Virus record (IMG/VR): IMGVR_UViG_3300045988_094674
Span: 32,001 to 96,000 of that record
Source: a virus
Reading direction: 5' to 3' (one strand)
DNA: 64,000 nucleotides
Each line of letters begins with the position of its first letter. Positions within the stretch are counted from its first letter, which is position 1. Of the stretch, positions 4,934 through 63,238 are shown piece by piece. A model generated the notes under the pieces. It was not told where the DNA came from and ran no database searches. It saw only the letters and a list, made by a program, of their open reading frames with translations. Both the position numbers and the translations under genes were made by a program.

Positions 4934-5956
4934 ATGGTAAATATCGCAGATCTGAAAAATTACATTCTTGAAGAACAGCAGATTGAGCCGATTTTGGAAG
5001 AGCTTGGTTGCCATCACATTAGTCATAAGACTGGTTATTACCAGTGCGCAAATCCAGATGGTGACAATAGAACGGCACTCTGCGTTTACGAGAATGAAAA
5101 TCTTACTGCGGTAGATTACACACGAGATATTGCCAATGGAAAGACCAGTTGTGATTTGATTTCTGTCGTCCAGTTCTTTCTGGAACTGTCTTTCCCAAAA
5201 GCCATTAAGCAAATCTGCGAATGGGTTGGTCTTGACTACTATCACAACTTCGAGGAAGACCTTCCTAAAAGTATGCTGATTCTAAAAGAACTCATTGCCA
5301 TGCAAAATGAAGGTGAAGAACACGAGGATGACCGTCCGATAGTCCCCATCTCCGAAGCTATCCTCGGTTATTATAAACCTTATGTGAACCAGATTTTTGC
5401 TGACGATGGGATATCTTATGAGACGCAGCAGGAGTTTGAGATTGGCTTTGATGAACTGACAAATAGAATCACGATTCCAATCAGAGATGAAATTGGCACT
5501 CTGGTTGGTGTAAAGGGAAGATATTTTGGTAAGCCTCCTGAAGGCGAATTAAAGTATCTATATCTTGAGCCGTGTGCCAGAAACCGTATTCTGTATGGTC
5601 TGTATAAGACAGAGCCATACATTAAGAATGAAGGTCTGGTATATGTTGGTGAAGCCGAAAAGTCTGTCATGCAGATGTGGAACATGGATGTTTACAACTG
5701 TGTGGCGACTGGCGGTAAGAAGGTTTCACAGAATCAAATTGAAATTTTAACACGTCTTTGCGTTGATATTTGTTTTGTATTTGATAAAGACGTTCAGCTT
5801 AGTGAGCTTATGGTTCTCGCCAATCGATTTGTCGATGGCGTAAGTGTGTATGCTGTAGTAGATGATAAAGGGATTCTGGATGAAAAGGAAGCCCCGACTG
5901 ACAATCCTGAAAAATTTAAAGCATTGATTGAGAATTATGTTAGGAGAATTAAATGA
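4934..5956 (+). CDS. DNA primase (Toprim type)
   Basis: N-terminal Cys/His cluster; Toprim-like VYVGEAEKSVM and FVFDKD. Confidence 0.65.
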   Translation: MVNIADLKNYILEEQQIEPILEELGCHHISHKTGYYQCANPDGDNRTALCVYENENLTAVDYTRDIANGKTSCDLISVVQFFLELSFPKAIKQICEWVGLDYYHNFEEDLPKSMLILKELIAMQNEGEEHEDDRPIVPISEAILGYYKPYVNQIFADDGISYETQQEFEIGFDELTNRITIPIRDEIGTLVGVKGRYFGKPPEGELKYLYLEPCARNRILYGLYKTEPYIKNEGLVYVGEAEKSVMQMWNMDVYNCVATGGKKVSQNQIEILTRLCVDICFVFDKDVQLSELMVLANRFVDGVSVYAVVDDKGILDEKEAPTDNPEKFKALIENYVRRIK

Positions 5957-34401: not shown

Positions 34402-35232
34402 ATGATTATTGACTGCAAATCTATTGCACAAGATATCAAAAATAAAATCAAGAATATTATCGCAGAAGCTGACTATGCTCCTGTTTTATATATTTATCAA
34501 GTAGGGGACAACCCTGCGTCTAACGCCTATATTCGTGGTAAGCTGCGTGACTGTGAAGAGGTGGGAATCGAAGCGGAGCTTATCAAACTGCCAGAAGATA
34601 TTACGGATGATGAATTAAATAACAAGATACTGGAAGATTATAATTATAATTGGGAAGATGTGGACGGTATCATCGTCCAGCTTCCACTGCCAAAACATGT
34701 CGATCCTAAAAATATTTGTATTCCAGACGCGGTTGATGTTGATGGTTTTAATTCTACATCTCCATTTCAGCCGTGCACTCCGCTGGGCGTTATGAAGATT
34801 TTCGACGCGATTGGTTACGATTTGGATGGCAAGAATGTGCTTGTGTGTGGTCAATCTGATATTGTGGGTCGTCCACTGGTTGATATGCTGATTAAGCGGC
34901 ACTGTAATGTGATCTCTGTGAATAGTACGGGGGATTATATGAAGAATACTGCTTACGTTACAAAACTAGCAAATGTTGTCATCTCTGCGGTTGGAAAACG
35001 TAATTTTATTTCTCATATAGATCTATTCAACACAGATGTCTGCATTGATGTTGGTATCAACTATGACGAGAATGGCAAACAACATGGTGATTGTTCTGAC
35101 GATATTTATGAGATGAAAGATATCAAGGTAACCCCTCGTATCGGCGGAGTTGGCCTCATGACCCGTGCCATGCTCTTATATAATGTATGTGTGGCTAGAT
35201 ATGGTGAACATAAGATGGAGAGCATCCTATAA
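34402..35232 (+). CDS. folD: bifunctional methylene-THF dehydrogenase/methenyl-THF cyclohydrolase
   Basis: YIRGKLRDCEEVGI, VQLPLPKHVD, DVDGFN, PCTPLGVMKI, GQSDIVGRPL, PRIGGVGLMTRAMLL. Confidence 0.9.
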   Translation: MIIDCKSIAQDIKNKIKNIIAEADYAPVLYIYQVGDNPASNAYIRGKLRDCEEVGIEAELIKLPEDITDDELNNKILEDYNYNWEDVDGIIVQLPLPKHVDPKNICIPDAVDVDGFNSTSPFQPCTPLGVMKIFDAIGYDLDGKNVLVCGQSDIVGRPLVDMLIKRHCNVISVNSTGDYMKNTAYVTKLANVVISAVGKRNFISHIDLFNTDVCIDVGINYDENGKQHGDCSDDIYEMKDIKVTPRIGGVGLMTRAMLLYNVCVARYGEHKMESIL

Positions 35233-35855: not shown

Positions 35856-37001
35856 ATGAGAGAGAAAGTTGTGCAGAACATCTATTACGACCGAGAAAAG
35901 AAAACCTATATTGTCTACTTCAACTACGGCAAAGATCCTTCTGGTAAGTATATTCGTAAGACTAAAACCTATAAGGACATCCGCACAGCAAAGCGTGAAT
36001 TGAAGAATTTTGAGGCAGAAAAGGTCAACCAAGAGCTTGTCGATCCTTCTGACATCGCATTCAAGGAGTACGCAGAACAATGGCTCAAGTATAAGACGTC
36101 AAGCTGCGAGGCCACCACAATATATGGCTACACCCAGTTTTTAAATAAACACATCTATCCATTCATGGGCGATATGCCACTCCAAAGCATCACGTCTGAC
36201 ACAATCAACGATTATATTTATTTCAAAACTCACTGCGACAAGAAAGACAATCCACTCAGCTTGAACTCGATTCGCAAACACTATGACCTGTTAAAACAGC
36301 TTTTTGATCGAGCGGTCGATTCAGACAGAATAAAAAAGAACCCTGTAAACAATGTTGCACCACCCAAGAAGACAGACGCTGAAATATCTGTGTATACCGC
36401 AGAACAGTTGCAGATGCTATTTTCGATTATAAGCGGTACAAGAATGGAACCCATTGTAAAACTTGCAGGATACCTCGGCCTTCGTAGAGAGGAAATATGT
36501 GGACTAAAATGGGAATCAGTGAATTTTGAAAAGAACGTAATCTATATCAATAACGCAAGAACGTTTGCCGGTACTACTGTAGAGAAGGGAACAAAAAGTA
36601 AACGCAGCACTCGTGTTCTGGCAATGCCGCAGGATTTGGCAAAAACTCTAAAAGAGATCAAAGCAGAGCATGACGACTACAAAGCAAAACTTCAAGCTGA
36701 CCATGGATTTGAGTATGTGATAAGCATGGAAAACGGGATGCCTATGCGCCCAAACTACGTCAGCGATTGCTTTAAGAAAACGATTGATGATGCACATCTG
36801 CCACACATAACCCTTCATGGTATTCGTCATAGTTTCGCTTCTGTTGCAAACGAACTTGGGATTCCTCTTTATGAAATATCCACATCCCTTGGTCATTCCA
36901 ATACAACTATCACAGAGCAGATTTATGTAAAGCTGTTTGATGCAAAGCATACGGACACTATAAACACAGTTGCTGATGCGCTCGCCACAAAAGATAAATA
37001 A
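35856..37001 (+). CDS. int: tyrosine recombinase / phage integrase
   Basis: ATG 35856 after AAAGGAGAG; SAM-like N-domain; catalytic GLRREE, HGIRHSF, LGHSNTTITEQIY. Confidence 0.9.
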   Translation: MREKVVQNIYYDREKKTYIVYFNYGKDPSGKYIRKTKTYKDIRTAKRELKNFEAEKVNQELVDPSDIAFKEYAEQWLKYKTSSCEATTIYGYTQFLNKHIYPFMGDMPLQSITSDTINDYIYFKTHCDKKDNPLSLNSIRKHYDLLKQLFDRAVDSDRIKKNPVNNVAPPKKTDAEISVYTAEQLQMLFSIISGTRMEPIVKLAGYLGLRREEICGLKWESVNFEKNVIYINNARTFAGTTVEKGTKSKRSTRVLAMPQDLAKTLKEIKAEHDDYKAKLQADHGFEYVISMENGMPMRPNYVSDCFKKTIDDAHLPHITLHGIRHSFASVANELGIPLYEISTSLGHSNTTITEQIYVKLFDAKHTDTINTVADALATKDK

Positions 37002-37539: not shown

Positions 37540-38577
37540 ATGAAGAAAGAAATGTATCTGCCACTTGAGATGTTAAAGAAAATTACAGAACAATATCCAA
37601 AAGCATGGGAGCAAATGGCAATGTTTCATAGTGAAAATGGGTCACCAGAACTTGGATCATGGCCTGAATGGTGCTATACTCCAATGAGCGCTGCGTTGGC
37701 AGTAGCATCCAAAGGGTATGATTTAAACAAGCTTCCTATTGATATAAGAATGGGAATAACATCCGTGGCTCAGGCAATATTTGCATTAGCTCCGTGGCGA
37801 TTAAATAAAGAGGTCTATGTCGTCGATGAAGATTTAAAGAATCTTTTATTTGAGCAAGACGGAGAACTCGATGTCCCTGACGAAATATTATTACAGCTTC
37901 CATATCCGTGTTTTTATGTAGAACTGCCAAACACATACTATAGGGCAGATAAGATTCATGGATTCTTTGTGACGCTGGAATATGACATTATTAACGGTGA
38001 CAAAGAGTTAAAACCTGTTTTTCTTACGGAAGATGGAAGCGTATTCAGCTATTCCATTCATATTGGAGCAAAAACAATAGAGGAAAGTGTGGATATGCTC
38101 GATAAACAGGCTCTTGAAAATACGAACGGAAATAAAGAACTAAAACGTTTGGCGCTAAGAGCGATACAGGATTCAGCAGAAACAAAAATATTCTTAAAAC
38201 GAATCCTCCAAGTGATATTATATATTCTTGCACAAAACGCAGAAATTACGCAAAATTTTGAGCAGTCATTTATCACAAAAAGAGGAAAAACAATCAAGGA
38301 TAAATATTCAGAAATACGCAAGTGGGATGTTGGTATTCGTGTTGGGGCTGCAATAAGGCAGCAGAAAATGCGCGAGCAGTCTGAACAACCAGAACGAAAT
38401 CAAAATGGGCATAATTCTCCAAGACCTCATATGCGTCGTGGTCATTGGCATCATTTCTGGACCGGACCAAAGACACAACCTGAAGAACGCAAACTTATTT
38501 TAAAATGGCTATCACCTATGACGGTTGCAACAAACACGGATGATACGCCTGTTGTAATTCATAAGGTGGGACTATGA
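37540..38577 (+). CDS. hypothetical protein with basic His/Arg/Trp C-terminal motif
   Basis: ATG 37540; 345 aa; C-terminal RPHMRRGHWHHFWTGP...LKWLSPMTV. Confidence 0.5.
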   Translation: MKKEMYLPLEMLKKITEQYPKAWEQMAMFHSENGSPELGSWPEWCYTPMSAALAVASKGYDLNKLPIDIRMGITSVAQAIFALAPWRLNKEVYVVDEDLKNLLFEQDGELDVPDEILLQLPYPCFYVELPNTYYRADKIHGFFVTLEYDIINGDKELKPVFLTEDGSVFSYSIHIGAKTIEESVDMLDKQALENTNGNKELKRLALRAIQDSAETKIFLKRILQVILYILAQNAEITQNFEQSFITKRGKTIKDKYSEIRKWDVGIRVGAAIRQQKMREQSEQPERNQNGHNSPRPHMRRGHWHHFWTGPKTQPEERKLILKWLSPMTVATNTDDTPVVIHKVGL

Positions 38578-38998: not shown

Positions 38999-39233
38999 AT
39001 ACTAGTTCAATATCACTTGGCTCTACGTAGCCCGATACATTCACTGAGATTGGATACTTGCCAATGCGACTTTCAAGATTTGTCACTCGATAGCGACCAT
39101 TGACTAGTTTTCCATCATAGATAAACCATTCTCCCCGGCGGCGCATACCGCAATGAGTCTGGCTGTTTGAAAATAATACTCCGTCTAATTTAATTTTGTC
39201 TCCTGCGCACAATGTATTCTTGTTATCTGCCAT
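38997..39233 (-). CDS. small protein coupled to endolysin (possible wall-binding module)
   Basis: ATG shares 1 nt with the endolysin TAA (TAATG); 78 aa, beta-rich. Confidence 0.45.
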   Translation of the reverse strand: MADNKNTLCAGDKIKLDGVLFSNSQTHCGMRRRGEWFIYDGKLVNGRYRVTNLESRIGKYPISVNVSGYVEPSDIELV

Positions 39234-39880
39234 TAAAACGAATTCCAAGTTGCTGGCCCACAAATACCGTCAGCCGACAATCCATGTGCTTTCTGCCATT
39301 CCACTAACTTAGCTTTTGTGCCAGCGCCAAAGATACCATCCACTTTCAAGCCAAGATGTCGCTGCAACACAGTGACAGCATAAGACGTGCCACTAGTGCA
39401 GTCCTTAGAACCCTGACGAATTGTAGGCATGATTTTACTCACGACATGATAAGCAGTACCGCTCTTACTAATCCAACGGCTTGAAGCCTCACGCACATCG
39501 ACGTGAACGAAACCGCCTGTCACTTGTGCACGACTATAATAGCCAATACCGCCGTGCTTCTGAAAGTAGGGGAGGGAAGCCACATACAGTGCAATACGGA
39601 TTGGATCGATACCAGCGATGTGAATATCTGCCGCTGTACCCAGACAATGCTGGCTGCGAGAACTGCCACCGATTGAAATATTGTACGCAGGAGTACGGTA
39701 GGCAGAACTAATCAGAACTGGTTTGCCAAAGTGATCACGAATCTGTTGTAGAGTCTCTACCAGCTCGGTTGCCACCTTGAATTCATCACTCTTATCATTG
39801 CAAGCAAATTCATAAGCGCAGAAATTCTTAGACAATTTTTTATTCCAGTCCTTTTTCATGGAATATGTAATAATACCCAT
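39233..39880 (-). CDS. endolysin: M15-type peptidase + peptidoglycan-binding domain
   Basis: SAYRTPAYN...SQHCLGTAADI...HVD zinc-peptidase motifs; C-terminal LQRHLGLKVDGIFGAGTKAKL...GLSADGICGPATW. Confidence 0.8.
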   Translation of the reverse strand: MGIITYSMKKDWNKKLSKNFCAYEFACNDKSDEFKVATELVETLQQIRDHFGKPVLISSAYRTPAYNISIGGSSRSQHCLGTAADIHIAGIDPIRIALYVASLPYFQKHGGIGYYSRAQVTGGFVHVDVREASSRWISKSGTAYHVVSKIMPTIRQGSKDCTSGTSYAVTVLQRHLGLKVDGIFGAGTKAKLVEWQKAHGLSADGICGPATWNSF

Positions 39881-39892
39881 GGAAACACACCT

Positions 39893-40213
39893 TCAATCCT
39901 TCTTGAGTTCGGTTTCAATTTTTTCGTTCTGAATATCCAGTTCCTTAACAGCAGCTTCAATCATCATCTCAATAACAGGAGTAACCTTTACACCCATCTT
40001 CTCCAGAATAGTAATAACGTACTTCTTTTTATCGGCTTTCTTGATCGCTCCGGTAAGACCAAGCTTTTCAGCTGCACGGACAGCCATCTGGACAATCTTG
40101 TACATACCAATCTGCTTCAGGTAAGGAATCCCATAGGCGATAAAGGCAGTGCCTGCACCAGTGATAACCAGCTTGACAACAACAGAAATAATCTGATTCA
40201 TATAATCCATCAT
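39893..40213 (-). CDS. holin (LL-H-like)
   Basis: 106 aa; N-terminal TM; immediately upstream of endolysin. Confidence 0.6.
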   Translation of the reverse strand: MMDYMNQIISVVVKLVITGAGTAFIAYGIPYLKQIGMYKIVQMAVRAAEKLGLTGAIKKADKKKYVITILEKMGVKVTPVIEMMIEAAVKELDIQNEKIETELKKD

Positions 40214-40281
40214 AATAAACCTCCTGATAAAAATAAAAGACCTACTAAAAAATCAATAGGTCATAGTTGATATATTAAATT

Positions 40282-40716
40282 TTATCCATTCTTTGGGTTG
40301 TTTTGACCGTCGATTAAATAGTTCTCAAGGGCAGCTTTTGCTTCCTTCATTGGCTCGATAGCATTTCCATCAATACCATGACTGAGCAGGGCAAGAAGAG
40401 CCTTCATAGTTACATTGCTTCCGTGTTCACTTTTATTGATGCGTTGCTCCGCCTCGACAATTTTGTGTTCGTGAACTTCAATCGTAATGGCATTTTCTTT
40501 CTGACGCTCTTCTAACTGAACAATCTTTGACTGAAAAAGGTCAAATCGATCTTTGTCAGCGGCAAGTTTCTTATCAATCGAATCGAACTTCTTGTCATGT
40601 TCTTCCAAATGTTCGTTCTGTTTGTTGTCTGGCTCCTTGATTTTACTGACAAATTTCATGATGACGGCGATAGCAGCCGAGATAGCAGTAATACCGCCAC
40701 AGATGCTTAAAATCAT
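40282..40716 (-). CDS. N-terminally anchored coiled-coil protein of the lysis module
   Basis: TM ILSICGGITAISAAIAVIM; no SD before ATG 40716; same frame is open through TAG 40720-40722 up to ATG 40782. Confidence 0.5.
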   Translation of the reverse strand: MILSICGGITAISAAIAVIMKFVSKIKEPDNKQNEHLEEHDKKFDSIDKKLAADKDRFDLFQSKIVQLEERQKENAITIEVHEHKIVEAEQRINKSEHGSNVTMKALLALLSHGIDGNAIEPMKEAKAALENYLIDGQNNPKNG

Positions 40717-40778
40717 GGTCTACAGTTGATGCATGGTAAAGGTGTATACGTGTGGTGCGGCATTCAATAGGACTGTAC

Positions 40779-40919
40779 TCATACTGTTGCGTCACCTCCG
40801 TTCTTAGCCTTCAGTGTCTCGTTGATGGCGGTAAGCTGGTTTGCAGCCGCATTCGGTGCCACGACAATCTCTTTCCCGGTCTCATCGAGGATAAAGGGCT
40901 TTAGTATTTCTTGTGCCAT
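40779..40919 (-). CDS. small protein (46 aa, below cutoff)
   Basis: RBS AAGGAGG 6 nt before ATG 40919. Confidence 0.5.
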   Translation of the reverse strand: MAQEILKPFILDETGKEIVVAPNAAANQLTAINETLKAKNGGDATV

Positions 40920-40935
40920 ACATTCCTCCTTTTTA

Positions 40936-40964
40936 TTGACAAAATTCTATCAACGTGATATGGT
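40936..40964 (+). promoter_or_regulatory. candidate plus-strand promoter in a minus-strand region
   Basis: TTGACA, 17-nt spacer, TATGGT. Confidence 0.4.
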
Positions 40965-40972
40965 TAAGTTAA
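40944..40972 (-). promoter_or_regulatory. candidate promoter for the lysis cassette
   Basis: TTAACT, 17-nt spacer, TGaTAGAAT (extended -10) on the minus strand. Confidence 0.4.
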
Positions 40973-41060
40973 ACATTCAATGTCGAGCGTGCATTACCTC
41001 ATTTATACGGGAAGAGTCTCTGTGCCCACAGCGGGTAATAGAGGCTCTTCCCTTTTATTT
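40971..41060 (+). ncRNA. candidate ~90-nt plus-strand small RNA
   Basis: Lies between the promoter at 40936-40964 and the terminator hairpin at 41009-41052 plus TTTTATTT. Confidence 0.3.
41009..41060 (+). terminator. intrinsic terminator (better formed on plus strand)
   Basis: 13-bp stem GGGAAGAGTCTCT/AGAGGCTCTTCCC; its single non-Watson-Crick pair is U-G on the plus strand and A-C on the minus strand; followed by TTTTATTT. Confidence 0.55.
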
Positions 41061-41495
41061 ACATATGGTTCTCCAGTGATAGTGCGGTTTATCCTCGTGG
41101 AATAACAAGTGTCGCAGCCAATCGTCAACATAGATGCACAACAACGAAAGAAAGAACCATAGCACTGTAAACGGTAGACAGATTTGACCTAGCAAATTGA
41201 AGGGTAGGGAAGAGTAGTCCCAGATATGTAACCCCAGCATCAGATTCAGCGGGATGCCCACGACAAGTTCCATTGCAGTCACAAATAACGCACCGACAAG
41301 ACCCTGTTCCCACATCGGCATCTCCCATGGAATATAATTGTTCAGACCGCCGATCACAACAAAGCAGATGCCACCCACTACAGCCATAGTCCAGTGTGAA
41401 TAACCACGCCACAATATTTCAATGCAATAATAAAGCGCCCCTCCTATCAAAAAGAGAAGGATGCACTTTAGATATTCTTTAACTTTACTCTTCAT
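41055..41495 (-). CDS. polytopic membrane protein, CmpB/'ABC-transporter type IV'-like
   Basis: 4-5 TM segments; CIEILWRGYSHWTM motif. Confidence 0.5.
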   Translation of the reverse strand: MKSKVKEYLKCILLFLIGGALYYCIEILWRGYSHWTMAVVGGICFVVIGGLNNYIPWEMPMWEQGLVGALFVTAMELVVGIPLNLMLGLHIWDYSSLPFNLLGQICLPFTVLWFFLSLLCIYVDDWLRHLLFHEDKPHYHWRTICK

Positions 41496-42025
41496 GATCT
41501 GACTACCTGAGCAACGCTGTCGTACTCGATTTTAATAGCATTAAGCTGTTCTAAAGTGTTACATTCCTTAATGCTCAATTCCAACTCCTGTTGATGAGAA
41601 ACAAATGGTTTAACATATACACCAATTTCTAGAGCTAACGCAGCTAAATTTTCATACGTCTACTCTACACATTCGGCACCAGTGCTATTCCATGTTAGCT
41701 TAAACGGCTGTGCGGTGGCTACAGAAATTTGATATAGAGCAAGATTTGAAGTCAACAAGGATTGCTTCTCACTTGTAACAGAATAATATTTACCATCTGT
41801 CCATTGTAATGGATGATTTTCAAGATATGTAGCTAGAATAGTTTTACTTTCTGAAACCTTTTTTTCTTTCTGAATCTTTAATGTATTTTCAGGATTGTTT
41901 TCAGTGAGTTCTGTGTATTCTTCTTTTGTTAATTTCCCTGCTAAATAAAAAGTATCTAATTTTGCAGTAAAATTATTTGTTTTTCCGGAAGCGATTACTT
42001 TTTTACATAGTTCATAAATGCTCAT
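41492..42025 (-). CDS. XkdX-like tail-module protein read through an in-frame TAG
   Basis: N-terminus FYLAGKLTKEEYTELT is XkdX-like; 55 sense codons follow TAG 41660-41662 and end in an ATGA overlap with the next gene. Confidence 0.6.
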
Positions 42026-42249: not shown

Positions 42250-43509
42250 TTACTGGAATGCGCCGGAGACGGCTTTGATGTAGCCGCCGGTGCCGGATGC
42301 ACTGCGGCTGGCGCTGATGCGGAAATTGAATGCTGAACCGTTGGCAACAGTCTTGTTGGTGAACACGATGTTCATGCCTTTCTTCACCTCAGTGGTAGCA
42401 TCCTGCCAGGCTGGGGACGGGTCGTTGGCGTTGTTCGTGACCTCCGCCTTAAACACAGCATCATCGGGAATGCTACCCGTCACCTGAAGGACGGCAACGG
42501 TAATGTCACCATCCACTGCCAGCGGGGTGGTCAGGGTCACACTTGCGGCGTGGACGGCCTTGGTGAAGGTTGCGGACGCGCTGGTGGTTCCCTTGCCGTC
42601 GCTCACCTCAACCGTCATGGTGTGGTTGCCGTTCAGGATGCGCTGGAATCCGGCAGCATCGGCGACCTGCTCAAAGGTCAGGACCGTGCCGCTGGCAACA
42701 CCGGCGCGAGTTTTAGTGGTCTTGCCGTCCAGCTTTTCGGTGACAGTCAGCGTGTCGCCGTCGGCATCGGTAACGGTATACTTCCATGCAAAGACCGTGT
42801 TCTTCTCGCCAAGAGCTGCGCCGTCCGTGCTGACGGTAGGTGCAGTGTTGACACCGACCGTGCCGTCGTCAGAGACCGCGAGTGAAGAGGGCAGTACAAA
42901 AGCGGGGCGAACACCATAGGAGTAGCCGTACCAGTAGTTGCCGGTCTAGCCATTGATGTCAACGCCAAAGATGTTGGTGCCACTGCTGACGTCCGGAGAG
43001 CGCAGCCACCAAATGGCAGCGCTGCCGCCGTTGTAGGCGACACGCTTGTTGATGCCGTCAGAGCTGTTGTCGAAGTACGCCAGCCGAACACCCTCCTCGG
43101 GGAAATAGCTGTCGTCTCTGGTCGTAAAGCCAACCTCATAACCAGACAGCAGGAATACTTTCGTGCTCATGCCATTGGAGCCGGTGGCAAGGCTTCCGCC
43201 GCTGCCAACGCCGTTCTGGTACGGAATCTTGACCTATTTGATGACGTTGCGAATGTCCGTATCAATCAGGTTGTAGAATGTTCCGTTCAGGTATGTATCG
43301 ATGCTGGAACCCTTGTAGGAGTTATTGTTGCTGAACACAGACGTTGTGTAGATGTCCTTCATCAGCAGCTACGTCCCGGCACAACTCGAATCATAGGTGC
43401 TGGTATTCGGATTACCCTGCTGCACAACAATAAAATCTTTGGACGCGCCGTTGACCTTGATTTTAACGGTGCTGCCAACAGCCTTCATGCCGAGATTTAC
43501 ATTTGCCAT
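42250..43509 (-). CDS. receptor-binding/tail-fibre-like protein (DUF6273-like) with 3 in-frame TAG
   Basis: RBS AAGGAGGTG before ATG 43509; one frame through TAGs at 43369, 43234 and 42946; WWLRSP ... YGVRPAF; Ig-like DADGD region. Confidence 0.75.
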
Positions 43510-43527
43510 AAAAATTCACCTCCTTAC

Positions 43528-45402
43528 TCAAAATTCAATCCTTGCCTGTTCGGCGTTCCAAACGCCGGCAACGGTCAGGCCGTCCAGACTGCTGAATGTG
43601 GCGCTGAACGGATTCTTGGTCACGTTCGTGCCGAATTTGAGATCAATTGATTTTATAAGATTTTTAATTTCATCATACTTTGTATCAACAAGATCTTTAA
43701 GAACCTTGCCTTGTGCGGCACTCAAACTTTGATCTGTGTCTGTACTCGTTAAATTGTTTTGAATTCCACGCCAAGTATCGGTAAACTTTGCATCACTTGG
43801 TACGCTTTTCTCTAATGTGTAAGTACATGCAACAGGTTTACCACCAGAAAAATAAACTGGCTGAGATGCTGAACCAGCAGTTGCTGTATCAAGCTTAACA
43901 GCACTTATAGCGGAACCACCTACACTTGAAGATCCAGCGTAATTATGGGTATGATTGATAGGACTTTTTCCTGCCAGCGCATCACCGGTCGCTTTTGCAT
44001 CGGCAGGCGCACCAGAAATAGACAAAGTAGAATCTACAGCAATAGCGTTTTTTACTTTATCCGAATATTTTTTTGCATTTGCTTCAGATGCGGCCGCTGC
44101 CACAGCACTACTTTCTGCGTCATTTTTATTCATTTCGGACTCTTTTGCATAATTTGCTGCAGATTTGGCACTCTCGCTTGCCGCATTTTTATTCTTTTCA
44201 GTAACTAAAATCGAATCAGCTGCTTTTGTTGCACTTTCGCTTGCACTATTTGCAGATGCTAAAGCCGCTTCTTCACTAGCCTTTGATGCAGTTTCACTTG
44301 CTTTCGCATTAACTTCAGACGTGGACGCTGCTAGTTTAGATGTTTCAGCTGCTTTTTCTGATGCCTGAGCGTTAGATGCACTTTTGCTGGCAGCCGTCTC
44401 ACTTGCAGCGGAAGCAACTTCACTCGACTTTGCATTAGCTTCAGATTGTTTCGATGCGAGTTCACTGTTCTTGGAATTTGTTTCTGATTCTTTTGAATTT
44501 AGTTCTGATTTCTTTGCGTTATTTTCAGACGCGAGAGCCTTATCTTCAGAAATTTTCGCTTTGTTCTCACTATCCTCTGCGGCTAGTTCACTCTGTTTCG
44601 CAGCGTCTTTACTGTCGCTGGCTTCATGTGCAGAGGTTGCAGCACCTGTTTCAGATTGAGAAGCTGCTAACTCTGATTCTTTTGAAGCCAGCGCACTAGC
44701 TTTGGATGCGTCTTCACTATTTTTTGCCTTAACCGCACTTGTTTCGGCAGCATCGGCATATCCTTTAGATAAGTCACGATTTATTTCTGTCTTTGAGATA
44801 CTTTCTTTTGCTCGTTGTTCAATCTCTGCAAACCGGGCTGTCAAAATCTCCAAGTCAGACGGATCAACTTTTACTCCAGTTCCAGTTACGTTAATAGTCT
44901 CTTTAATTGGTAGGGAAGAGGGAAGTGTGTTAAAATTGTATGAAAACTCTTTTTTCCCGCTTTCGTTTGTTTCCAGACTATAAAAACGAATAGAGAACTT
45001 CACGATTCCATTGTGTGCAGTAACATCGTTTAGAATAGTCCATCCAAATAAAATCTTACCGGGAACAGTATCGATATCAATTTTAGTAATTGGATAAAAA
45101 CCGTCAGAGAGAACAGTTTCATATGCACCTTCATCACTGACCGATTCAAACTGAACTACGCACATTTCTGTGCTTAAATCATGCTGGTCAAAATATCTGT
45201 CGATCTCGAAATAAATAGTTTCCGCTGCATGATCATTTTCAACACCAAGGAATGTAAATTCATCAGGAACAGAAATTGTACGACTGTCAGCATCAATGAT
45301 AAAACGTGGCTCATCAGAGGGCAACATAACGAGTTCTTTTAATTGAGATTGATTTTGAATATCATCAAGTCGTTGTAGATATTCTTCTTTTGATGTGATC
45401 AA
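43528..45402 (-). CDS. tail fibre / upper-baseplate (BppU-N-like) protein with Ser/Ala/Glu-rich shaft
   Basis: TTG start after GAGGAGGTG; N-terminal ~190 aa paralogous to 45403-46176. Confidence 0.65.
   Translation of the reverse strand: MITSKEEYLQRLDDIQNQSQLKELVMLPSDEPRFIIDADSRTISVPDEFTFLGVENDHAAETIYFEIDRYFDQHDLSTEMCVVQFESVSDEGAYETVLSDGFYPITKIDIDTVPGKILFGWTILNDVTAHNGIVKFSIRFYSLETNESGKKEFSYNFNTLPSSLPIKETINVTGTGVKVDPSDLEILTARFAEIEQRAKESISKTEINRDLSKGYADAAETSAVKAKNSEDASKASALASKESELAASQSETGAATSAHEASDSKDAAKQSELAAEDSENKAKISEDKALASENNAKKSELNSKESETNSKNSELASKQSEANAKSSEVASAASETAASKSASNAQASEKAAETSKLAASTSEVNAKASETASKASEEAALASANSASESATKAADSILVTEKNKNAASESAKSAANYAKESEMNKNDAESSAVAAAASEANAKKYSDKVKNAIAVDSTLSISGAPADAKATGDALAGKSPINHTHNYAGSSSVGGSAISAVKLDTATAGSASQPVYFSGGKPVACTYTLEKSVPSDAKFTDTWRGIQNNLTSTDTDQSLSAAQGKVLKDLVDTKYDEIKNLIKSIDLKFGTNVTKNPFSATFSSLDGLTVAGVWNAEQARIEF
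44062..44760 (-). repeat. low-complexity Ser/Ala/Glu/Lys coding repeats
   Basis: About 230 aa of SE..A..S-type units (SKESELAASQSE, SKNSELASKQSEANAKSSE ...). Confidence 0.7.
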
Positions 45403-46176
45403 TTATGTCACCTCCTCATTTTGCGCTGACCAAATACTATTTAACTCTTCATATTGCGGTGTAACATCGCTATACATATCCGACACCTTTTTAAATAAGA
45501 CAAGCATTAGATTTTTTTCGTTTTGAGTTAGAGTAAACTTTTCTGCATTGGTGACAGCTGTATTGGCTCTCACAACATCTTTCCCAATGTTTTTTGCCAT
45601 AGTTGTAAATTTTTCAACTAAGCCTTCGACTTCTGCAGGCGGAATCTCTTTATCTGCGTCCATGGTGTCCAAAGAATCTTTTACGGGTAGCTCGACAGGA
45701 AGGGTATTGAAATTGTAAGCAAAAACAATAGTATCGTTTTCAGTTTTTGTCTCATAAAATCGAATAGAAAATCTTACATTTACAGCATAAGCCGTAACAT
45801 CGTTTTGAATCTCCCATCCAAAAATAATCTTACCATCTGCCGTATCTACATCCATTTTTACAACAGGATAAAACCCCGAACTGATTACCTGTTCTGAACC
45901 TTCAGTCGTATCAATAGACTCAAATTGAACGATACAAGTTTTCTCACTTAAATCTGCTTTATCAAAATATCGATCGATTTCAAAATAGATAGTCTCTGCT
46001 TTGTGGTCGTTTTTTACTCCAAGAAAAGTAAACTCGTCTGGAATCGTAATGGTGCGCTGATTTGCGTCAATAATGAAACGAGACTCGTTGCCCGGTAACA
46101 TAACCAACTGCTTTAGTCCTGCCTGATTCTGGATATCGTTAAGCCGCTCCATATACTCACTAGAAGAAGTAATCAC
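45403..46176 (-). CDS. BppU-N-like baseplate protein (short paralog)
   Basis: GTG start after GGAAGGAG; MITS..EY..RL.DIQNQ...LVMLP...RFIIDA shared with the downstream gene. Confidence 0.6.
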   Translation of the reverse strand: MITSSSEYMERLNDIQNQAGLKQLVMLPGNESRFIIDANQRTITIPDEFTFLGVKNDHKAETIYFEIDRYFDKADLSEKTCIVQFESIDTTEGSEQVISSGFYPVVKMDVDTADGKIIFGWEIQNDVTAYAVNVRFSIRFYETKTENDTIVFAYNFNTLPVELPVKDSLDTMDADKEIPPAEVEGLVEKFTTMAKNIGKDVVRANTAVTNAEKFTLTQNEKNLMLVLFKKVSDMYSDVTPQYEELNSIWSAQNEEVT

Positions 46177-46678: not shown

Positions 46679-49624
46679 TTATGATTTTGGCTCAACATAT
46701 TTATTTGCCGATGCGCTCAGATATGTGATGTACGGGTAGTACGGATAATAGCGGCTCATGGTAACATTCATAACGCCCTCACCCAGATTGGTATCTATCT
46801 TTTTTGTAATCCATTCTACGGGGGTATCATTCTTTAGATAGCGAGCTGCATATTTTATTTTCTGATTAACGTCCAACCACGGAATTAAATGCATACGAAG
46901 CGTTATAGTGTCGGTTAGTCTACAGTTTTTCCAAAGCTGATATTCTGTTGCGAGCATCAAATCCTCGTCATTCGTGTAAGCATCAAACTCTCCACCGGAA
47001 CATACGAGATTTCTGCGTCCAATTTTATCAATCGTAAAGCGACTATTATAAAGGTTCGTCAAATCCTTCGGGTCTGTAACAACGATATACTTCAAATTGT
47101 CACAGCCTTCAATTTCTTTATCTTTTTCAATCTCCGCATCTGTAGGCATCTTATCTACAAATTTCGCCATAGCATGAGACTGAGATTGACCAAGAAAATA
47201 GATCCGGCTCTCTTTTATGAGGGCAGGATCTTCAATCTTTTCTGTATGTTTTCCTTCTTCAGTATTTGTTACCTTGTAATAATGCGTTTCGTACATTTTT
47301 GTTTCTTCGTTGTACTCTTCTTTTACGATATACTGAATCTTTGGATTTATCTCAGTCTTGTCATATTCACCAGTTGTAGAATTGAACACCCATTTATAAG
47401 CACCTTCGTCTGCCTGGTCAAGATATTTTTCTCCATACTGTACAACATAGTAACGTCCTTTTTTCATAACATTTGTATCAATAGGAATATCATTACCATT
47501 TTGATCTGTTGATGCCTTATATACCATCATTGGACCATATACTTGTAACGCGTGATCTTTATATTGCGCTCCATCTTTGTCAACAGCGGTTGTGTAAACA
47601 TCATTTACAATATACATATGAGTATTAAGCGGGATATTTACTGGACAGATGAAAGATAAGCGTGACCCGTCCGATATAATTGCGTTTTTTAGTTTTAAAA
47701 CTATAATAGAGTTTCCAATGTTATTGATATCAAGCTGAATTTCGAAATCATCGTATTTGTCTTTTGGAATCCCTAATATTTCGGCAACAGAGTCTTTCCA
47801 TTTTGATGCTGACATGCCATTATCTCGTGCCTTATAAAACACTCTGCCAGTACCTTCTGGGTCGTCTTCCTCTAGTTTATCCTTGCAGAAATAATCGCTG
47901 GTGATAGTAGAACCCCATGCCTCAACACAATTATGTACCTGCGTATAATCAACCGTCGAATTTTCTGTGATAACAAGACTTTTGAAAATATCAGGGCTAA
48001 TTACAACAGGGTCATCATACCCGTTTGGAATCTCTTTGCATACAAAAGTATCATCATCAAAGTACATCTCAAACGGGTAATATAGGTCACGCAACTCTGT
48101 TAGAATCGTCCAAACAGTAGTTCCAGTATTATACTCCATGTCGTGTGGAATGCGCCGCTTCCAATAATCAATCACGCATTTTGTCATACCGGAAAGCTCG
48201 AAAGTATTCTTGATAACATCTCGCACATAATACGGTTTTGATTTGTCCTCTGTGTAAATCTTATCTCCATTCGCATCCTTGCTCTCAGTAAGTTTATACA
48301 TTGGAATTCGTGTCGAGTACCCAGTCAATGTTCCACCCAGTGTTCCATCAAGCAGGGATACTAAATCTACACACGACAAGTCAAGCTTGTTAGTCATTGC
48401 ATCATACGAGATACCATTCGACTGAATCGCGTAAACCCCGACTGAGAACCAATGTACGCCATCCTCATCGATATAATTTGCACAATTCCTGATAACTTTA
48501 TCCTTCGCAACTGTTTGGATAATAAACTGCTGAATCTGTCCCAGACCATCTTTTAGTTCCCATATGTGGCCCTGAATATCATGCATAGAATATCCGACAA
48601 ATGGACTCGTCTTTTTATACTGGTTCTTTAATTCTGGCTCGCTCCAACCGGCAATTGCCGAAACATCAACTGGCTCTAAGACTCTATTCGCAATCGTTTC
48701 TCCTTCAATGGCAGCGATCATATTTTTTAGATAGATAGACTTTCCATCTATTGTACATGTGAGACCTTTTGCGTCATAAGATAAAACAGCGTCGTTAAAT
48801 TCTAGGTCTTTCGTTGTCCATGATTTTAAATCAAACACAAAACCAGCAACAGGCTTAACATCTTCAGTTTTCTAAGTCAAATCTGATAAGTTGTTTGAAT
48901 TGTAGACTTTATTGTAAGCAAGCTTATAAACCTCAGAAATATAATCTATAACACCGTTACGACTAACTGGAATTAACTCGTCTCCATCCTCTAAAAACAG
49001 CGTATATGCAATTCTCCGAGTTACTGTGACGCCAACCGCCTCATTATCAGCAGTCCAAGCATCGTCGCAACCGCAAGCGGTAGAATAGTCACCAATTTCA
49101 AATGGGCCATTTTCAGTTGAGAAATCCTTATAGAGATTTAAATTGCGTGCAGTCCAAATGATTCGTGGTCGATTTATATTGTTAATATTTGAATATAGGT
49201 CATGCTTTGTTGCTTTGATTTTTGCAATATAAGTCAGCAACTCTTTGTTCTTTAAATCGTATTCTATATTATTTTTTACAATAGAATCAATCGAATCGCC
49301 GTCAATGTCTCCATCATATGTTAAAATACTGACATCTTTCTCTGAAGTTGGGGCTTTCATACCGATATAGATACGAACTTTTTTATCAATCTAATCTTCC
49401 GCTTCAAACTGAGAGATAGAAAAACCCATCATTGGGAAAATAGACAAACTGTATGTACGGCGAATATCAGAATCTGCATCGTTAGAACCGGAACCATCCA
49501 AAGTCAGGCCCTCAATGCTATCAATGATTTGAGACTCTTTGTTCAATAATTCTACTCGTGTAAACAGACTCTTGGAATGACTGGTAAGCAAAGCCAAGTC
49601 TTCTTGTGTTGGCAAATAAGTCAT
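46679..49624 (-). CDS. large tail-tip/baseplate (Tal-like) protein with 2 in-frame TAG
   Basis: RBS AAGGAGGTGG before ATG 49624; ORFs 49391-49624, 48872-49360 and 46679-48838 share one frame, joined by TAGs at 49391 and 48872. Confidence 0.75.
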
Positions 49625-58588: not shown

Positions 58589-59002
58589 ATGGAAAAATAT
58601 GTACGGTATTGTCCATTTTGCGATAAATACTATTCAAGATGGGACTTATTATGTGCTTTTTGTATTCGAGACAATATTTTGCTTATAGAATGGAACGAAA
58701 TGACAAAAAAACAAAAAGAAGAATGGAAAAATAAAACTAAGCCAAGGAGAAGTATTTCTGAAATAAATCCAGATACTCTCAAAAAACTTCAAAAGAATGC
58801 CAATACTTTCGATTCCCAATATAGAGCAGAACTGGAAGAAAAGGAACATCCTAAATACACCCCAAAATGCCCTACATGCGGCTCGCCAGACCTAGAAAAG
58901 ATCGGAACCGCTTCTAAAGTCTTGGATGTTGCTTTCTGGGGATTTGCCAGTGGAAAAGTGAAGAAAACTTTCCATTGTAAGAATTGTGGATATGAGTGGT
59001 GA
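58589..59002 (+). CDS. zinc-ribbon protein (opposite strand to the tail genes)
   Basis: RBS GAGGAG; CPFCDK...CAFC and CPTCGS...CKNCGYEW. Confidence 0.6.
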   Translation: MEKYVRYCPFCDKYYSRWDLLCAFCIRDNILLIEWNEMTKKQKEEWKNKTKPRRSISEINPDTLKKLQKNANTFDSQYRAELEEKEHPKYTPKCPTCGSPDLEKIGTASKVLDVAFWGFASGKVKKTFHCKNCGYEW

Positions 59003-59954: not shown

Positions 59955-60287
59955 TTATTTCAGAAGTTCAGCGATTTCTTCAGCAGTCATACCATTTGCC
60001 AGTGCGTTAGCAACGATATCTTCTGCCTTTTTACGATTCAGCTCTGCGGCAATCTTTTCATCGGCATCAGCCTTTTTCTTTTCGAGCTTTACAATCTCTT
60101 TATTGATTTTCTTCAATTCAGCTTCCTTAGCTTTTTTATCAGCATTCAGTGCAGCAATATTGGTGCCGAGTGCTGTGATTTCTTCAGCAAGAGATTCTGC
60201 GGCAGTATTCTTTTCAGCAATCTGTGCTGCGTAATCAATACCATCAAGAACCTTTGCTTTATTCTTACTTCCCTTGGGTCTAGCCAT
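59955..60287 (-). CDS. AT-hook-like N-terminus + coiled-coil small protein (DUF4315-like)
   Basis: ATG 60287 after GGAGGTG; MARPKGSKNK; ends GMTAEEIAELLK. Confidence 0.55.
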   Translation of the reverse strand: MARPKGSKNKAKVLDGIDYAAQIAEKNTAAESLAEEITALGTNIAALNADKKAKEAELKKINKEIVKLEKKKADADEKIAAELNRKKAEDIVANALANGMTAEEIAELLK

Positions 60288-60330
60288 AATAAAACACCTC
60301 CGTATATTTTGGATACGCGATTGTAATATT

Positions 60331-60359
60331 ATTATAGCCAGAATATCGTATGTAGTCAA
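60331..60359 (-). promoter_or_regulatory. near-consensus sigma70 promoter inside the cassette
   Basis: TTGACT, 17-nt spacer, TATAAT on the minus strand, ~37 nt before ATG 60287. Confidence 0.65.
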
Positions 60360-60537
60360 CGAATATTTTGTTTTCTCCTATTTTGTATCGCGCCAGAGAG
60401 TAGCGCGTCTCCTCATTTCCACCTACTTCTTTAAGTCGTCTGGTTACGTCTGAGGTGGACTTCTGAACTTTCGCCCAGAACTGACTATCCTTCCAGTGGT
60501 TGCTCACTGACCCTTTTTAGTCGATGAACCTTCCACC

Positions 60538-60790: not shown

Positions 60791-63238
60791 TTATACGCAA
60801 CAAATATAAGAGGGCATATTAACTTTACCCGCACCATTTTTGAGCTTTCCGCTCATCTGCATTACAGACAACACGCCGGAAATGGCGGCTGTCAGAGTTG
60901 GTAATGCGCCAGCAAATTTTACAGCACTATCTGCACCGTCAACAAAAACAGTAGCAAGGCTTATAAAGAACTTCGGGATATCAGACTTCATCAAGTCCGT
61001 ACTAAACTTCTGGAATGCAGAATCAAGCTGATTAAGCTTCGCCTGCAAGGAGTCCATGTACGTCTGGTTCTCACGCATTGCGCTGCCACTAGAATTGAGT
61101 GCCTGCTTCATAGCGTCTTCAGCAACACTAAAATTATTCAGCAGGGCAGATGTACTCTGACCTCCTCTCTTTCCAGAGATCAGCTCAGTAATATTTGCCT
61201 GTGTTGTGTCAGACAGATCTTTCCAAACCTCAGAAAGTTCCTTCATAATCTGATAGGTTGATTTGAAGGTATTATTATCCTTCATAATATCAACACCAGC
61301 AAGTTGCTTCAACTCAGATCGAAGTTCGGACACAGAATCTGCCATCCCATCTGTTGCGATACCGGCATTTTCTGCATCTGTTTTTGAAGCACGAAGGTAC
61401 ATACTCAAAGTTTTTAGGTAAGTGCCACTCGTATCTGCGTCCTGAAGTACACCGTTTACAGCAGACGCCAAACTAAGCGTCTCCTGATATGTATTTCCGG
61501 CGGCAGACATCGCAGCGGAACTTTTCTGCATGATAATTCCAAGGTCGTTCATACTGACTGGTTCAGTATTAGCGATTTGGTTCATGCAGTCCAGAAGACG
61601 CTCTGCATCATCAGCAACCAACCCAAAACCTTGCATTGCAGAAATCAGGTAAGAAGAAGCAGTTGTTGCATTATCTATCTGGTCTCCAACATTAGCCATA
61701 AGAGCAGACACACGAGCAAGCTCTTCAGAGTCTTTGTCCGTATATCCAAGTCGCTTCTAATCGGCAGTGCTACTTACAAGATCAGAAATATTAGCACCAA
61801 GATTACGAGCGTTTGTTGCAGTTCTATCGAGATATTCGTTCATCTCGTCGTCAGTCATTTTACTGACTTTTTTAAGCTCTGTTACAGCCGTATCAAGTTC
61901 CAGAACATTATTATAAACCTCTCGCAGACCTTGTTTGACCATAGCCACGCCAGCCATAGCAATAGCTGTCTGGAAGTGCTCCTTAAACAGACGAGACAGT
62001 TTTTGACCAAGAGTTTCTGTAGTGGCCCCACATCTGCTGGCCTCAACCTCAAGATTTGATAGTCTTGCACTAAGATCAGTAACATTGCCTTCACAGCCAG
62101 CAGCAGAAGCTTTTATTCCGTTTAAACTATCAATTAGCCAAGAATATTTACTTTTATTTGCAATAGAGTCTTCTAACTTCGTTGCACGTTCATAAACACT
62201 CTTAAACTTCGTCATATCAACATTGGCTTGATTTATATCTCTAAAATCAAATCCAAGTTCTTTTAAATGTTGACTTGTAGAATCAATAGTTGTATCAAGA
62301 GTCTTGCATTTTTTATCAAAGTCTTGAATTGCTTTCCCTGGTGTAGTGTTCTCAATAGAAGCAAGCTGATCTCGTAACTCTTTTAACTTTCCAGAAGTTT
62401 TTCCAGTTCCATCTTCTCCATATAAATATTTTTTGATATTATCATTTTTATAGTTGGAGTTATTCTTAGAATAGTTTTCAAGAGACTGAATCTTTTTTTG
62501 ATATTTTTCATACTCGGATTCTTGAGATATGAGAGTCTTTTTTAAATCATCTGCAATTTCTTGATTTTGTTTTTTTAGTTCTTTTGCAGCCGAATCAGCA
62601 CCTTTTGCAGTATTCCTGTCAGCATTGAATTTTCCGGTTTTTTCGATATCCTCAAGCTTTAACTTCTGAGTTTCCGTAATTACATCTTTTGTTTTTGTCT
62701 TGAGTTTATCCATCTCATCGTTGATTGCGCTCAATCTAGTCTGTACCGCTTTCAACTCAGATGATTTGTTTCCATTAGCAATTAACAATGCTTCATCCGC
62801 TTTTAACTTTGCTTGACGATTTGCAAGGCTGAAAAGGCGAGAAATATCACTTTTTGAAGTATCTTGCGGTTTTGCAGAACCAGACTTTCCGGTATCAACC
62901 TTAACTGTCTGCTTTGCTGCAGATTGCATAGCTTTTTTAAGCTGTGCGGTTACTTTACTCTGGTCAACCTTAACATCAAGTGTAACCTTTGGAGTTCTTA
63001 ATTTTCCACTCTTGACCACCTTGTCAAGTGCGTCATTTATATTGCGGATTGTATCGTTTTGATTCACTCCGAAAGCAATTTTTACTGGTTTTTCTTTATA
63101 ATACTCTTTAACAGAATTAAATTGCTTGTCTAACTCTGCTTTATTTGCGTCAATAACAACCTTAACCTTGATAGCTGTTACAGAGGAAGTATCAGCACTA
63201 CTTGCGGTGTTTGTATTATCCGCCATACCGTTGGTCAC
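60791..63238 (-). CDS. tape-measure protein, proximal part with TP901-type core, read through an in-frame TAG
   Basis: ORFs 61757-63238 and 60791-61711 share one frame joined by TAG 61757-61759; core ANVGDQIDNATTASSYLISAMQGFGL...; start at 63238 (GTG) or 63226 (ATG). Confidence 0.75.
60816..60826. repeat. right copy of 11-bp inverted repeat (ATATTAACTTT)
   Basis: Reverse complement of 58554-58564; lies where the upstream TMP ORF stops looking protein-like. Confidence 0.5.

Follow-up and report, generated by a model that had tools for sequence, protein, structure and literature searches.

Here we present the analysis of a gene that lies hidden as fragments in the minus strand of a 64,000-nucleotide (nt) stretch of viral DNA, designated here as the window (positions 32,001 to 96,000 of IMG/VR record IMGVR_UViG_3300045988_094674). 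Between positions 42250 and 43509, a single frame runs from an ATG at 43507-43509 through 419 sense codons to a TAA at 42250-42252; it contains no other TAA and no TGA, whereas codons 47, 92 and 188 are TAGs. A Shine-Dalgarno sequence, AAGGAGGTG (43517-43525), precedes the ATG by 7 nt. A standard-code listing of open reading frames (ORFs) shows the locus only as fragments (43369-43509, 43234-43362, 42946-43170 and 42250-42618). This frame and its three TAGs had been proposed in a first-pass annotation of the window, and both frame and coordinates held on re-reading, as did the claim of the highest TAG density: three in-frame TAGs in 419 codons is the top count for any credible window gene, the others having 2 in 981, 1 in 811 and 1 in 177. 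The gene has a GC content of 56%, compared with 41% for the window and ~40% for the gene's flanks. The reading that we favour, and judge likely as a whole, is that this is an intact gene for a tentaclin, which has lost its diversity-generating retroelement (DGR) and is translated with TAG read as tryptophan (Trp, W).

The locus looks fragmented because the gut phage family that carries it reads TAG as an amino acid, and the frame is almost certainly an intact gene translated by read-through. Pfam assigns a DUF6273 domain to amino acids (aa) 45-208 (E=6e-32), a match that spans all three TAGs, and a Big_9 domain to aa 221-315; in addition, the product matches PHROG 10993 with E=5e-121. In a search of 5.8 billion proteins, which returned thousands of matches, the best 120 were all uninterrupted proteins of ~419 aa (120/120), and full-length homologues align end to end. 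This bears out the earlier proposal that one gene lies here, not several small separate proteins, and that similarity continues across the TAG junctions. The seven closest database proteins (P0001-P0007; 92-99% identity) show glutamine (Gln, Q) at all three sites because their contigs had been called with code 15; in the DNA, the codons are TAG. Structure prediction, a check suggested along with that proposal, gave one coherent chain for the full-length product. The AlphaFold2 (AF2) model, computed from a diverse 29-sequence alignment, has a predicted local distance difference test (pLDDT) score of 93.1 and a predicted template modelling (pTM) score of 0.70; with 18 near-identical sequences, pLDDT was only 37. 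In it, a globular domain at the N terminus is followed by two beta-sandwiches; TAG47 falls in the strand at 46-50, and the turn of the 179-183/189-193 hairpin holds TAG188.

A decaying pseudogene, that is, an acquired standard-code gene killed by three nonsense mutations or expressed as short fragments only, would be in keeping with the foreign composition of this accessory gene, with the loss of the DGR, and with a ratio of nonsynonymous to synonymous substitution rates (dN/dS) 3' of TAG47 of 0.35-0.46, slightly above the 0.29-0.32 found among standard-code homologues. That ratio is nevertheless well below 1 beyond the first TAG. Furthermore, all three TAGs are kept in five relatives (L003-L006 and L489; 93-99.9% nt identity), making, with the window, six genomes in which nucleotide divergence reaches 7% but no TAA, TGA or frameshift is seen. 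TAGs also occur in essential neighbouring late genes, TAG terminates no gene, and in-frame TAA and TGA are absent from 4368 clean late-gene columns of the family (alignments described below). Decay is therefore extremely unlikely.

The protein is very probably a tentaclin. Tentaclins are a named family of proposed receptor-binding proteins or adhesins, with the protein of phage FP_Toutatis as one of the seeds (PMC10743442), and the gene is 81% identical at the nucleotide level to the "Hoc-like" genes of the Faecalibacterium phages FP_Toutatis (gp82) and Lelie (orf31). The N-terminal domain is recognized as DUF6273-like by Pfam, by the model and by structural matches; its designation as a C-type-lectin-like (C-lec) domain comes from PMC10743442, and no lectin stands among the top Foldseek matches. 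The best solved Foldseek match is 9qa6, the DUF6273 N-terminal domain of the Thomasclavelia ramosa immunoglobulin A (IgA) peptidase ThomasA (E=3e-6, root mean square deviation 3.7 A, 305 columns), which belongs to a bacterial metallopeptidase and is dispensable for IgA cleavage; Foldseek also matches phage DUF6273 proteins. The surface beta-hairpin typical of the family is present as well: the stretch that aligns to the variable region (VR) of Lelie and Toutatis, aa 163-205, takes in strands E179-183 and E189-193. An immunoglobulin (Ig)-like chain completes the 419-aa protein, supported by Big_9, the two beta-sandwich domains, and Protein Data Bank (PDB) matches to Ig, fibronectin type III (FN3) and tail-fibre structures, including "Tail fiber protein" 31he_AAA for Ig-like domain 1 (profile match, E=4e-15). 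In the C-terminal Ig domain, N359, N360, D363, P366, W368, D370 and R402 are conserved across 29 diverse homologues, with N360, D363, P366, W368 and R402 invariant; anchoring of the protein to the virion by this domain is a proposal only (PMC10743442).

The adhesin or tail-fibre-like architecture of DUF6273 plus Ig domains that the first-pass annotation had suggested is thus supported by Pfam, by the structure model and by a locus between tail-fibre genes and the lysis cassette. Of its "Ig-like DADGD repeats", the Ig-like part stood, in the form of the two beta-sandwich domains of the C-terminal half, but the DADGD motif is single. Its view of the gene as the one most likely to set host range was not borne out: two dedicated tail-fibre genes lie just upstream, and most relatives are without tentaclin. 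A head-decoration role like that of T4 Hoc, suggested by the label of PHROG 10993, seems unlikely, given the lectin-like N-terminal domain and the position in a tail-fibre/lysis module; tentaclin topology also differs from that of Hoc (PMC10743442). A PDB sequence search with a shallow profile yielded noise only (lysozyme). The FP_Toutatis and Lelie tentaclins share with the window protein the length of 419 aa, the C-lec/DUF6273 domain with its variable hairpin, the Ig-like domains with the conserved C-terminal one, and a gene position between tail-fibre and lysis genes. Their carriers, however, are ~54 kb in length with 55% GC, whereas the carrier here is ~130 kb with 41% GC, and the three in-frame TAGs are found only here. 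Separately, eight tentaclin-less family members (L474, L476, L477, L479, L481, L483, L485 and L487; ~5640-6260) have, at the corresponding position just 5' of the 177-aa gene, a distant DUF6273 domain of 29-30% identity that probably forms the C-terminal portion of some tail-fibre protein.

The carrier is a temperate human-gut phage of ~130 kb and 41% GC whose late genes use TAG as a sense codon, and its family in IMG/VR consists of more than 150 contigs of 110-140 kb. Within the window, the plus strand is used over 1-38.6 kb, including the integrase gene, with no credible in-frame TAG, and the minus strand over 39.2-64 kb, with genes for lysis, tail fibres, baseplate and tape measure, several of which contain TAG. 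On the coding strands, window ORFs of at least 60 aa end in TAA 69 times, in TGA 35 times and in TAG 0 times, a count that leaves aside ORFs nested out of frame and pieces of interrupted genes. TAG does not act as a terminator here. The peptide contexts in tentaclin are DSSCAGT[W/Q]LLMK (codon 47), NVIK[W/Q]VK (codon 92) and, in the VR, DING[W/Q]TGNYWYGYSYGVR (codon 188); that of the 177-aa gene downstream is CVE[W/Q]TYENLAALALEIGVYVK. Two other TAG-containing "ORFs" of the minus strand, 58649-58975 and the first 43 codons of 59955-60416, are probably non-coding, one being an implausible sequence and the other an extension 5' of a better start at codon 44, and were left out of the TAG statistics. 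This organization is that of the code-15 gut phages (crAss-like, Lak, Garnet, Topaz and others; Borges et al., Peters et al.), in which TAG is likewise confined to late structural and lysis genes and never a terminator, integrase and early genes are TAG-free, and temperate members occur; the phage-encoded tRNA(CUA) of such phages has a counterpart here in relatives of the window phage (see below). No relative was recovered among GenBank phages when 19 kb of the late region was compared by megablast, INPHARED does not contain the family, and a connection with phAss-1, a TAG-recoded phage of 136 kb, was not established. In a host search of GTDB genomes, a conserved phage protein had 0 matches, and the integrase had only matches of 22-27% identity in unrelated phyla.

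A tRNA(CUA) gene was found in 36 of 80 relatives (L152 and 35 others of L152-L231), 5' of the late genes and on the same strand, at the head of the late-gene block, with 40.9 bits against the Rfam tRNA model. In L152, which is 93-97% identical to the window at the nucleotide level, it occupies 2169-2243, ~17 kb past the right end of the window, in a cluster of tRNA genes for Thr, Thr, Tyr, Ser, Lys and Met. Five sequence variants occur, in which the acceptor stem, G73 and the anticodon loop are kept and the rest varies. In six sister loci the same slot is occupied by a tRNA-Trp(CCA), with which the tRNA(CUA) has in common the unusual acceptor stem (GCGCC.../...GGCGU), G73 and an identity of up to 78%; the D-arm of the phage's own tRNA-Gln is absent from it.

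The surroundings of these tRNA genes yielded some additional observations. The segment directly after the suppressor tRNA (L152:2244-2700) is conserved, has no Rfam match and looks non-coding; a small ORF in it (L152:2342-2699), with three TAGs and TAG/CAG alternation, was rejected as coding because of its implausible translation and lack of an Rfam match. Theta ribozymes (HDV-like; HDV, hepatitis delta virus) have been reported beside phage suppressor tRNAs, and none was detected in L152:2244-2700. Also, a further group of tRNA genes (Leu-caa, Leu-taa, Pro, Gln-ttg, Leu-tag, Gly, Met/Ile/His) lies ~3-5 kb left of the window start in L072-L151, where some tRNA-Gln and tRNA-Thr calls measure 88-90 nt and may contain introns or insertions.

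In homologues of the tentaclin, the three TAGs at 47, 92 and 188 align to W, Q and S, respectively. Position 47 is W in all non-recoded close homologues, and in 164 distant DUF6273 domains (representatives of clusters at 50% identity) it is W in 139 (85%) and L, V, I or C in the rest. In the same domains, position 92 is a variable polar position (Q 77, T 26, E 18, S 10 and others) and position 188 is variable and small or polar (S/G/N/D/A/T). Codon alternation was analysed in gap-free contexts only, by aligning the family loci with 26 late genes called in the late region of the window and in the initial 12 kb of L152; apparent in-frame TAA and TGA codons in relatives were gap-induced frame artefacts and disappeared under this filter. 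TAG was seen as a variant in 6 of the 35 columns with a TGG majority, compared with 1 of 191 Gln columns (Fisher p=6e-5) and 3 of 4333 others (p=1e-11). Neither CAG nor CAA appears in the TGG/TAG columns, though synonymous transitions are seen in about half of all columns. For the seven solid window TAGs, the counterparts in relatives are TGG in four cases, CAG in one and TCC in one. In these codon alignments, TAG behaves demonstrably as an equivalent of TGG. Among the 191 Gln columns, the alignment of TAG with Gln that defines code 15 is seen in one; what the family displays is a conserved Trp aligned with TAG, together with a suppressor of Trp type. The TGG-type TAG columns, W47 and the Trp-like tRNA make Trp, not Gln, the most likely residue, and we consider that TAG is probably read mainly as Trp. 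The replacement of TAG by Q in the first-pass annotation, an assumption that agrees with the aligned residue at 92 and not with those at 47 and 188, is by the same evidence probably wrong.

Several observations weigh against Trp, and some of them would be explained if the same intact gene were translated with TAG as Gln (phage code 15). Codon 92 is Q in 120 of 120 close homologues and in every homologue down to 47% identity; it reflects a CAG-to-TAG change, as does an extra TAG at codon 98 of L005, which is CAG elsewhere, and two columns show GAG-to-TAG changes. All of these fit Gln better than Trp, the GAG-to-TAG columns being conservative under Gln. The TAGs of close relatives were translated as Q by the gene callers, and the published view is that phage TAG is recoded to Gln, with only TAG-to-Gln and TGA-to-Trp found in phages (Borges et al.) and only TAG-to-Gln in the literature for phages that differ from the host code. 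There are no tRNA genes in the window, and so no suppressor within its 64 kb. Furthermore, family loci with no detectable tRNA(CUA) in the slot, including those with the tRNA-Trp(CCA), still have 1-4 in-frame TAGs in the aligned late genes, and across the family loci the presence of the tRNA(CUA) in the slot bears no relation to the TAG count; there must be an additional suppressor gene or some other means of read-through. The E. coli amber suppressor su+7, a derivative of tRNA-Trp, inserts mainly Gln, and Knowlton, Soll and Yarus are said to have found in 1980 that its specificity is dual, for Gln and Trp. It follows from this precedent that a Trp-like tRNA body does not prove charging with Trp. 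Against Gln stands position 47, which is W or aliphatic in 164 of 164 distant domains and never polar. TAG is found in 17% of TGG columns versus 0.5% of Gln columns, despite CAG-to-CAA alternation in ~50% of columns; the TGG/TAG columns are free of CAG and CAA, four of seven solid window TAGs are TGG in relatives, and the suppressor has no tRNA-Gln D-arm. A Gln reading is on balance unlikely.

A related alternative is dual decoding, in which the Trp-derived tRNA(CUA) would insert a mixture of Trp and Gln and so give rise to a mixed protein population at each TAG. Both TGG-type and CAG/GAG-type TAG columns are found, the Trp-like tRNA body carries U35 and a weak G1-U72 pair, and su+7 offers a parallel. 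The strong excess of the TGG type suggests Trp as the functionally relevant reading, and a mixture, which sequence alone cannot tell apart from pure Trp, seems to us quite improbable. Under the preferred assignment to Trp, the product would likely be read as W47, W92 and W188.

TAG as Trp is the meaning assigned in code 32, a plastid code (Balanophoraceae plastids), and Kienbeck et al. 2024 predicted the Trp isotype for 19.4% of 180 phage tRNA-Sup genes, citing the "rarely reported code 32" (PMC10879173). Those phage cases rest on isotype prediction, whereas here codon alternation and residue conservation are at hand. Compared with the code-15 phages, TAG is here aligned with Trp and the suppressor is related to tRNA-Trp. 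The TGA-to-Trp code-4 phages (Agate, Jade and Sapphire) resemble the family in that a stop is read as Trp by a tRNA-Trp derivative, in genomes of ~130 kb and with relatives that vary in recoding; the codon and anticodon here are TAG and CUA, not TGA and UCA, and TGA still terminates. Full-text literature searches found no explicit report of TAG-to-Trp in phages, and a code-32-like reassignment appears not to have been documented previously at the codon level for any phage. What is new is the probable decoding of TAG as Trp; the tentaclin family and the recoded phage type were known. In broader terms, it seems reasonably likely that this gut phage family of more than 150 contigs reads amber as Trp in its late genes, in a code-32-like manner, by means of a suppressor derived from its own tRNA-Trp, and that the tentaclin gene was "naturalised" with three TAGs within ~10% divergence.

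In FP_Toutatis and Lelie, the tentaclin gene comes directly after Avd, the template repeat (TR) and the reverse transcriptase (RT) of a DGR, and every tentaclin gene examined in PMC10743442 had an adjoining DGR. The DGR of Lelie, described in PMC11792537, is bona fide: 17 of 19 TR/VR mismatches fall at template adenines, and the VR corresponds to aa 163-205. RT and Avd stand immediately 5' of tentaclin in about 55 of 80 IMG/VR homologue loci. No RT, Avd, TR or repeat turned up in the window, which was examined by a repeat search, by blastn (word size 7) and, using RT and Avd of Lelie as queries, by tblastn. A degenerate pattern to which any cognate TR should conform retrieved VRs and nothing else from IMG/VR and Joint Genome Institute (JGI) metagenomes; a contig of 127,214 bp that shares 99.6% identity with the window held one of these. 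Also, the VR has drifted at non-adenine positions: compared with the Lelie TR, the window has 19 A-site and 11 non-A mismatches, whereas L007 (a family member considered below), Lelie and Toutatis have 16-17 A-site and 1-2 non-A. Within the clade, 9 of 141 variable sites lie in the VR, which makes up 10% of the gene and is thus not a hotspot. We hold with considerable confidence that the DGR was lost; the gene would have arrived without it, so that the binding site became fixed and evolves by ordinary mutation. This descent from a DGR variable protein, and the loss of the element, escaped the first-pass annotation. The presumed receptor or adhesion role in the virion and the lectin-fold ligand-binding domain, with a surface built by adenine-directed mutagenesis, recall Mtd of Bordetella phage BPP-1; unlike in Mtd, the VR lies in the N-terminal domain and not at the C terminus, the retroelement is gone and diversification has ended.

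Weighing against loss, the absence of RT, Avd and TR from 311 family loci (tblastn with the Lelie RT and Avd) relates to about half of the clade genome, and an RT and TR in the other half might still act on the gene in trans and keep it diversifying as a DGR target. In the clade (L003-L006, L382 and L489), six of the nine variable VR sites fall at positions equivalent to template adenines (~2.5 expected), and the window differs from L003 at only three sites in 1260 nt, all in the VR; remote DGR targets are, moreover, known from the literature. The adenine-site excess may reflect diversifying selection on binding residues or be a relic of the DGR. An active element is very unlikely, as RT, Avd and TR are missing from the 64 kb and from each of the family loci, neither the 127-kb sister contig nor IMG/VR contains the exact degenerate TR pattern, the VR is no more variable than the rest of the gene, and the VR differences within the clade are mostly transitions.

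Only 1 of 80 holin-anchored family loci has tentaclin, and this scarcity among relatives, together with 56% GC in a 41% GC genome, indicates horizontal acquisition. The gene was evidently captured from Faecalibacterium-type phages. One family member, L007, has a TAG-free tentaclin gene (10001-11260) with TGG, CAG and TCC at the three sites. Its 5' half is nearly identical to that of Lelie, with 0 differences over codons 48-91 and differences only in the VR over codons 93-187, and its 3' half is that of the window clade; nearly all differences between its VR and the Lelie TR fall at adenines. Judged by this mosaic, the L007 copy looks like a recent capture or recombination, and its partial near-identity to Lelie hints at hosts shared by this uncultured family and the Faecalibacterium phages. 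The locus offers a natural series, from a DGR-linked standard-code gene, through a captured gene with no DGR and no TAG (L007), to a captured gene with three TAGs, which shows the speed with which a foreign gene adapts to a recoded genome and how a hypervariable adhesin is retained with a frozen binding site.

In the mechanism that we propose, the three TAGs would have been gained after capture of the gene, and late transcription would yield the suppressor tRNA and the TAG-bearing late mRNAs together. Without the tRNA(CUA), translation of tentaclin would end at codon 47, after 46 residues, so that the full-length adhesin would be made only once the suppressor is expressed. With the tRNA(CUA), the full-length lectin-Ig protein would be produced and probably placed in the virion near the tail fibres, with the last Ig domain as anchor. 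Trp would restore the conserved core residue W47 and would be a newcomer at the two variable positions, 92 and 188, of which 188 lies in a fixed hairpin rich in aromatic residues (...DING-W-TGNYWYGYSYG...), a putative binding site for glycan or protein. In this scheme we infer which aminoacyl-tRNA synthetase charges the tRNA(CUA), as well as the virion location, the ligand and the timing of expression. For annotation, the standard code splits the gene into four pieces, and code 15 probably puts Gln at Trp sites, including that of the conserved core Trp. If the assignment is true, TAG-to-Trp would be a third stop reassignment in phages, besides TAG-to-Gln and TGA-to-Trp, and would show that a single change in the anticodon of a tRNA-Trp carried by a phage can produce a suppressor. 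The features of the gene and its TAG-bearing neighbours are collected in Table 1.

Table 1. Coordinates of the tentaclin gene, its parts and selected neighbouring genes in the window
Feature	Position	Strand	Basis or remark
Complete tentaclin gene (very probable)	42250..43509	-	Translation; Pfam DUF6273 and Big_9; PHROG 10993, E=5e-121; full-length homologues; AF2 pLDDT 93.1
Shine-Dalgarno AAGGAGGTG	43517..43525	-	Sequence
In-frame TAG, codon 47	43369..43371	-	TGG in all standard-code homologues; core beta-strand E46-50
In-frame TAG, codon 92	43234..43236	-	CAG in homologues; variable polar position
In-frame TAG, codon 188	42946..42948	-	TCC in homologues; within the one-time DGR variable region, where the template base is not adenine
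N-terminal C-type-lectin-like DUF6273 domain, aa 1-212	42874..43509	-	Pfam aa 45-208; Foldseek; PMC10743442 for C-lec
Former DGR variable region, aa 163-205, with hairpin E179-183/E189-193	42896..43022	-	Alignment to Lelie VR
Ig-like domain 1, aa 217-318, with DADGD motif	42556..42861	-	Pfam Big_9; PDB profile match; AF2 beta-sandwich
C-terminal Ig-like domain, aa 321-419, presumed virion anchor	42253..42549	-	AF2 model; anchoring only proposed (PMC10743442)
Upstream tail-fibre gene (599 aa)	43528..45327	-	TGA stop 18 nt before tentaclin ATG; Pfam Phage_fiber_rpt; tail-fibre PHROGs
Downstream late gene, 177 aa, TAG at codon 122 (41660-41662)	41492..42025	-	TGG in 75/75 relatives, ~72% identity; alignment continues past TAG
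Tail/baseplate gene, 981 codons, TAG at codons 78 (49391-49393) and 251 (48872-48874)	46679..49624	-	Codon 78 is TGG in L007
Late gene, 811 aa, TAG at codon 490 (61757-61759)	60791..63226	-	TGG in 79/79 relatives
Lysis cassette	39233..41495	-	Holin-like 41055-41495, endolysin 39233-39880; Pfam and PHROG

The neighbourhood of the gene yielded further observations. The two genes 5' of tentaclin (43528-46152, minus strand) share a duplicated N-terminal module of ~170-180 aa with 57% identity, and a 123-nt direct repeat is found at 44980/45754; the 599-aa fibre also has an Ala/Ser/Glu-rich repetitive coiled region. On the plus strand, a 345-aa protein (37540-38577), whose orthologues in other contigs have an AcrVA2-like Pfam match, adjoins the tyrosine integrase (35856-37001) and the strand switch, and a FolD-like methylenetetrahydrofolate dehydrogenase/cyclohydrolase (34402-35232; Pfam THF_DHG_CYH on the L007 orthologue) is a possible auxiliary metabolic gene. 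Many family contigs (L411-L488) end 1.5-6 kb 3' of the holin gene, corresponding to the strand switch at ~38.6-39.2 kb of the window and to a peak of the cumulative GC skew; this point may mark the end of the genome, an attachment site or a feature of replication. Finally, the 127-kb sister contig L489 (8353-13165) is 99.6% identical over the tail-fibre, tentaclin and 177-aa genes, with homology that, at the stringency used, stops at the holin (window 39000-41072), which indicates that the lysis module has been exchanged in L489 relative to the window.

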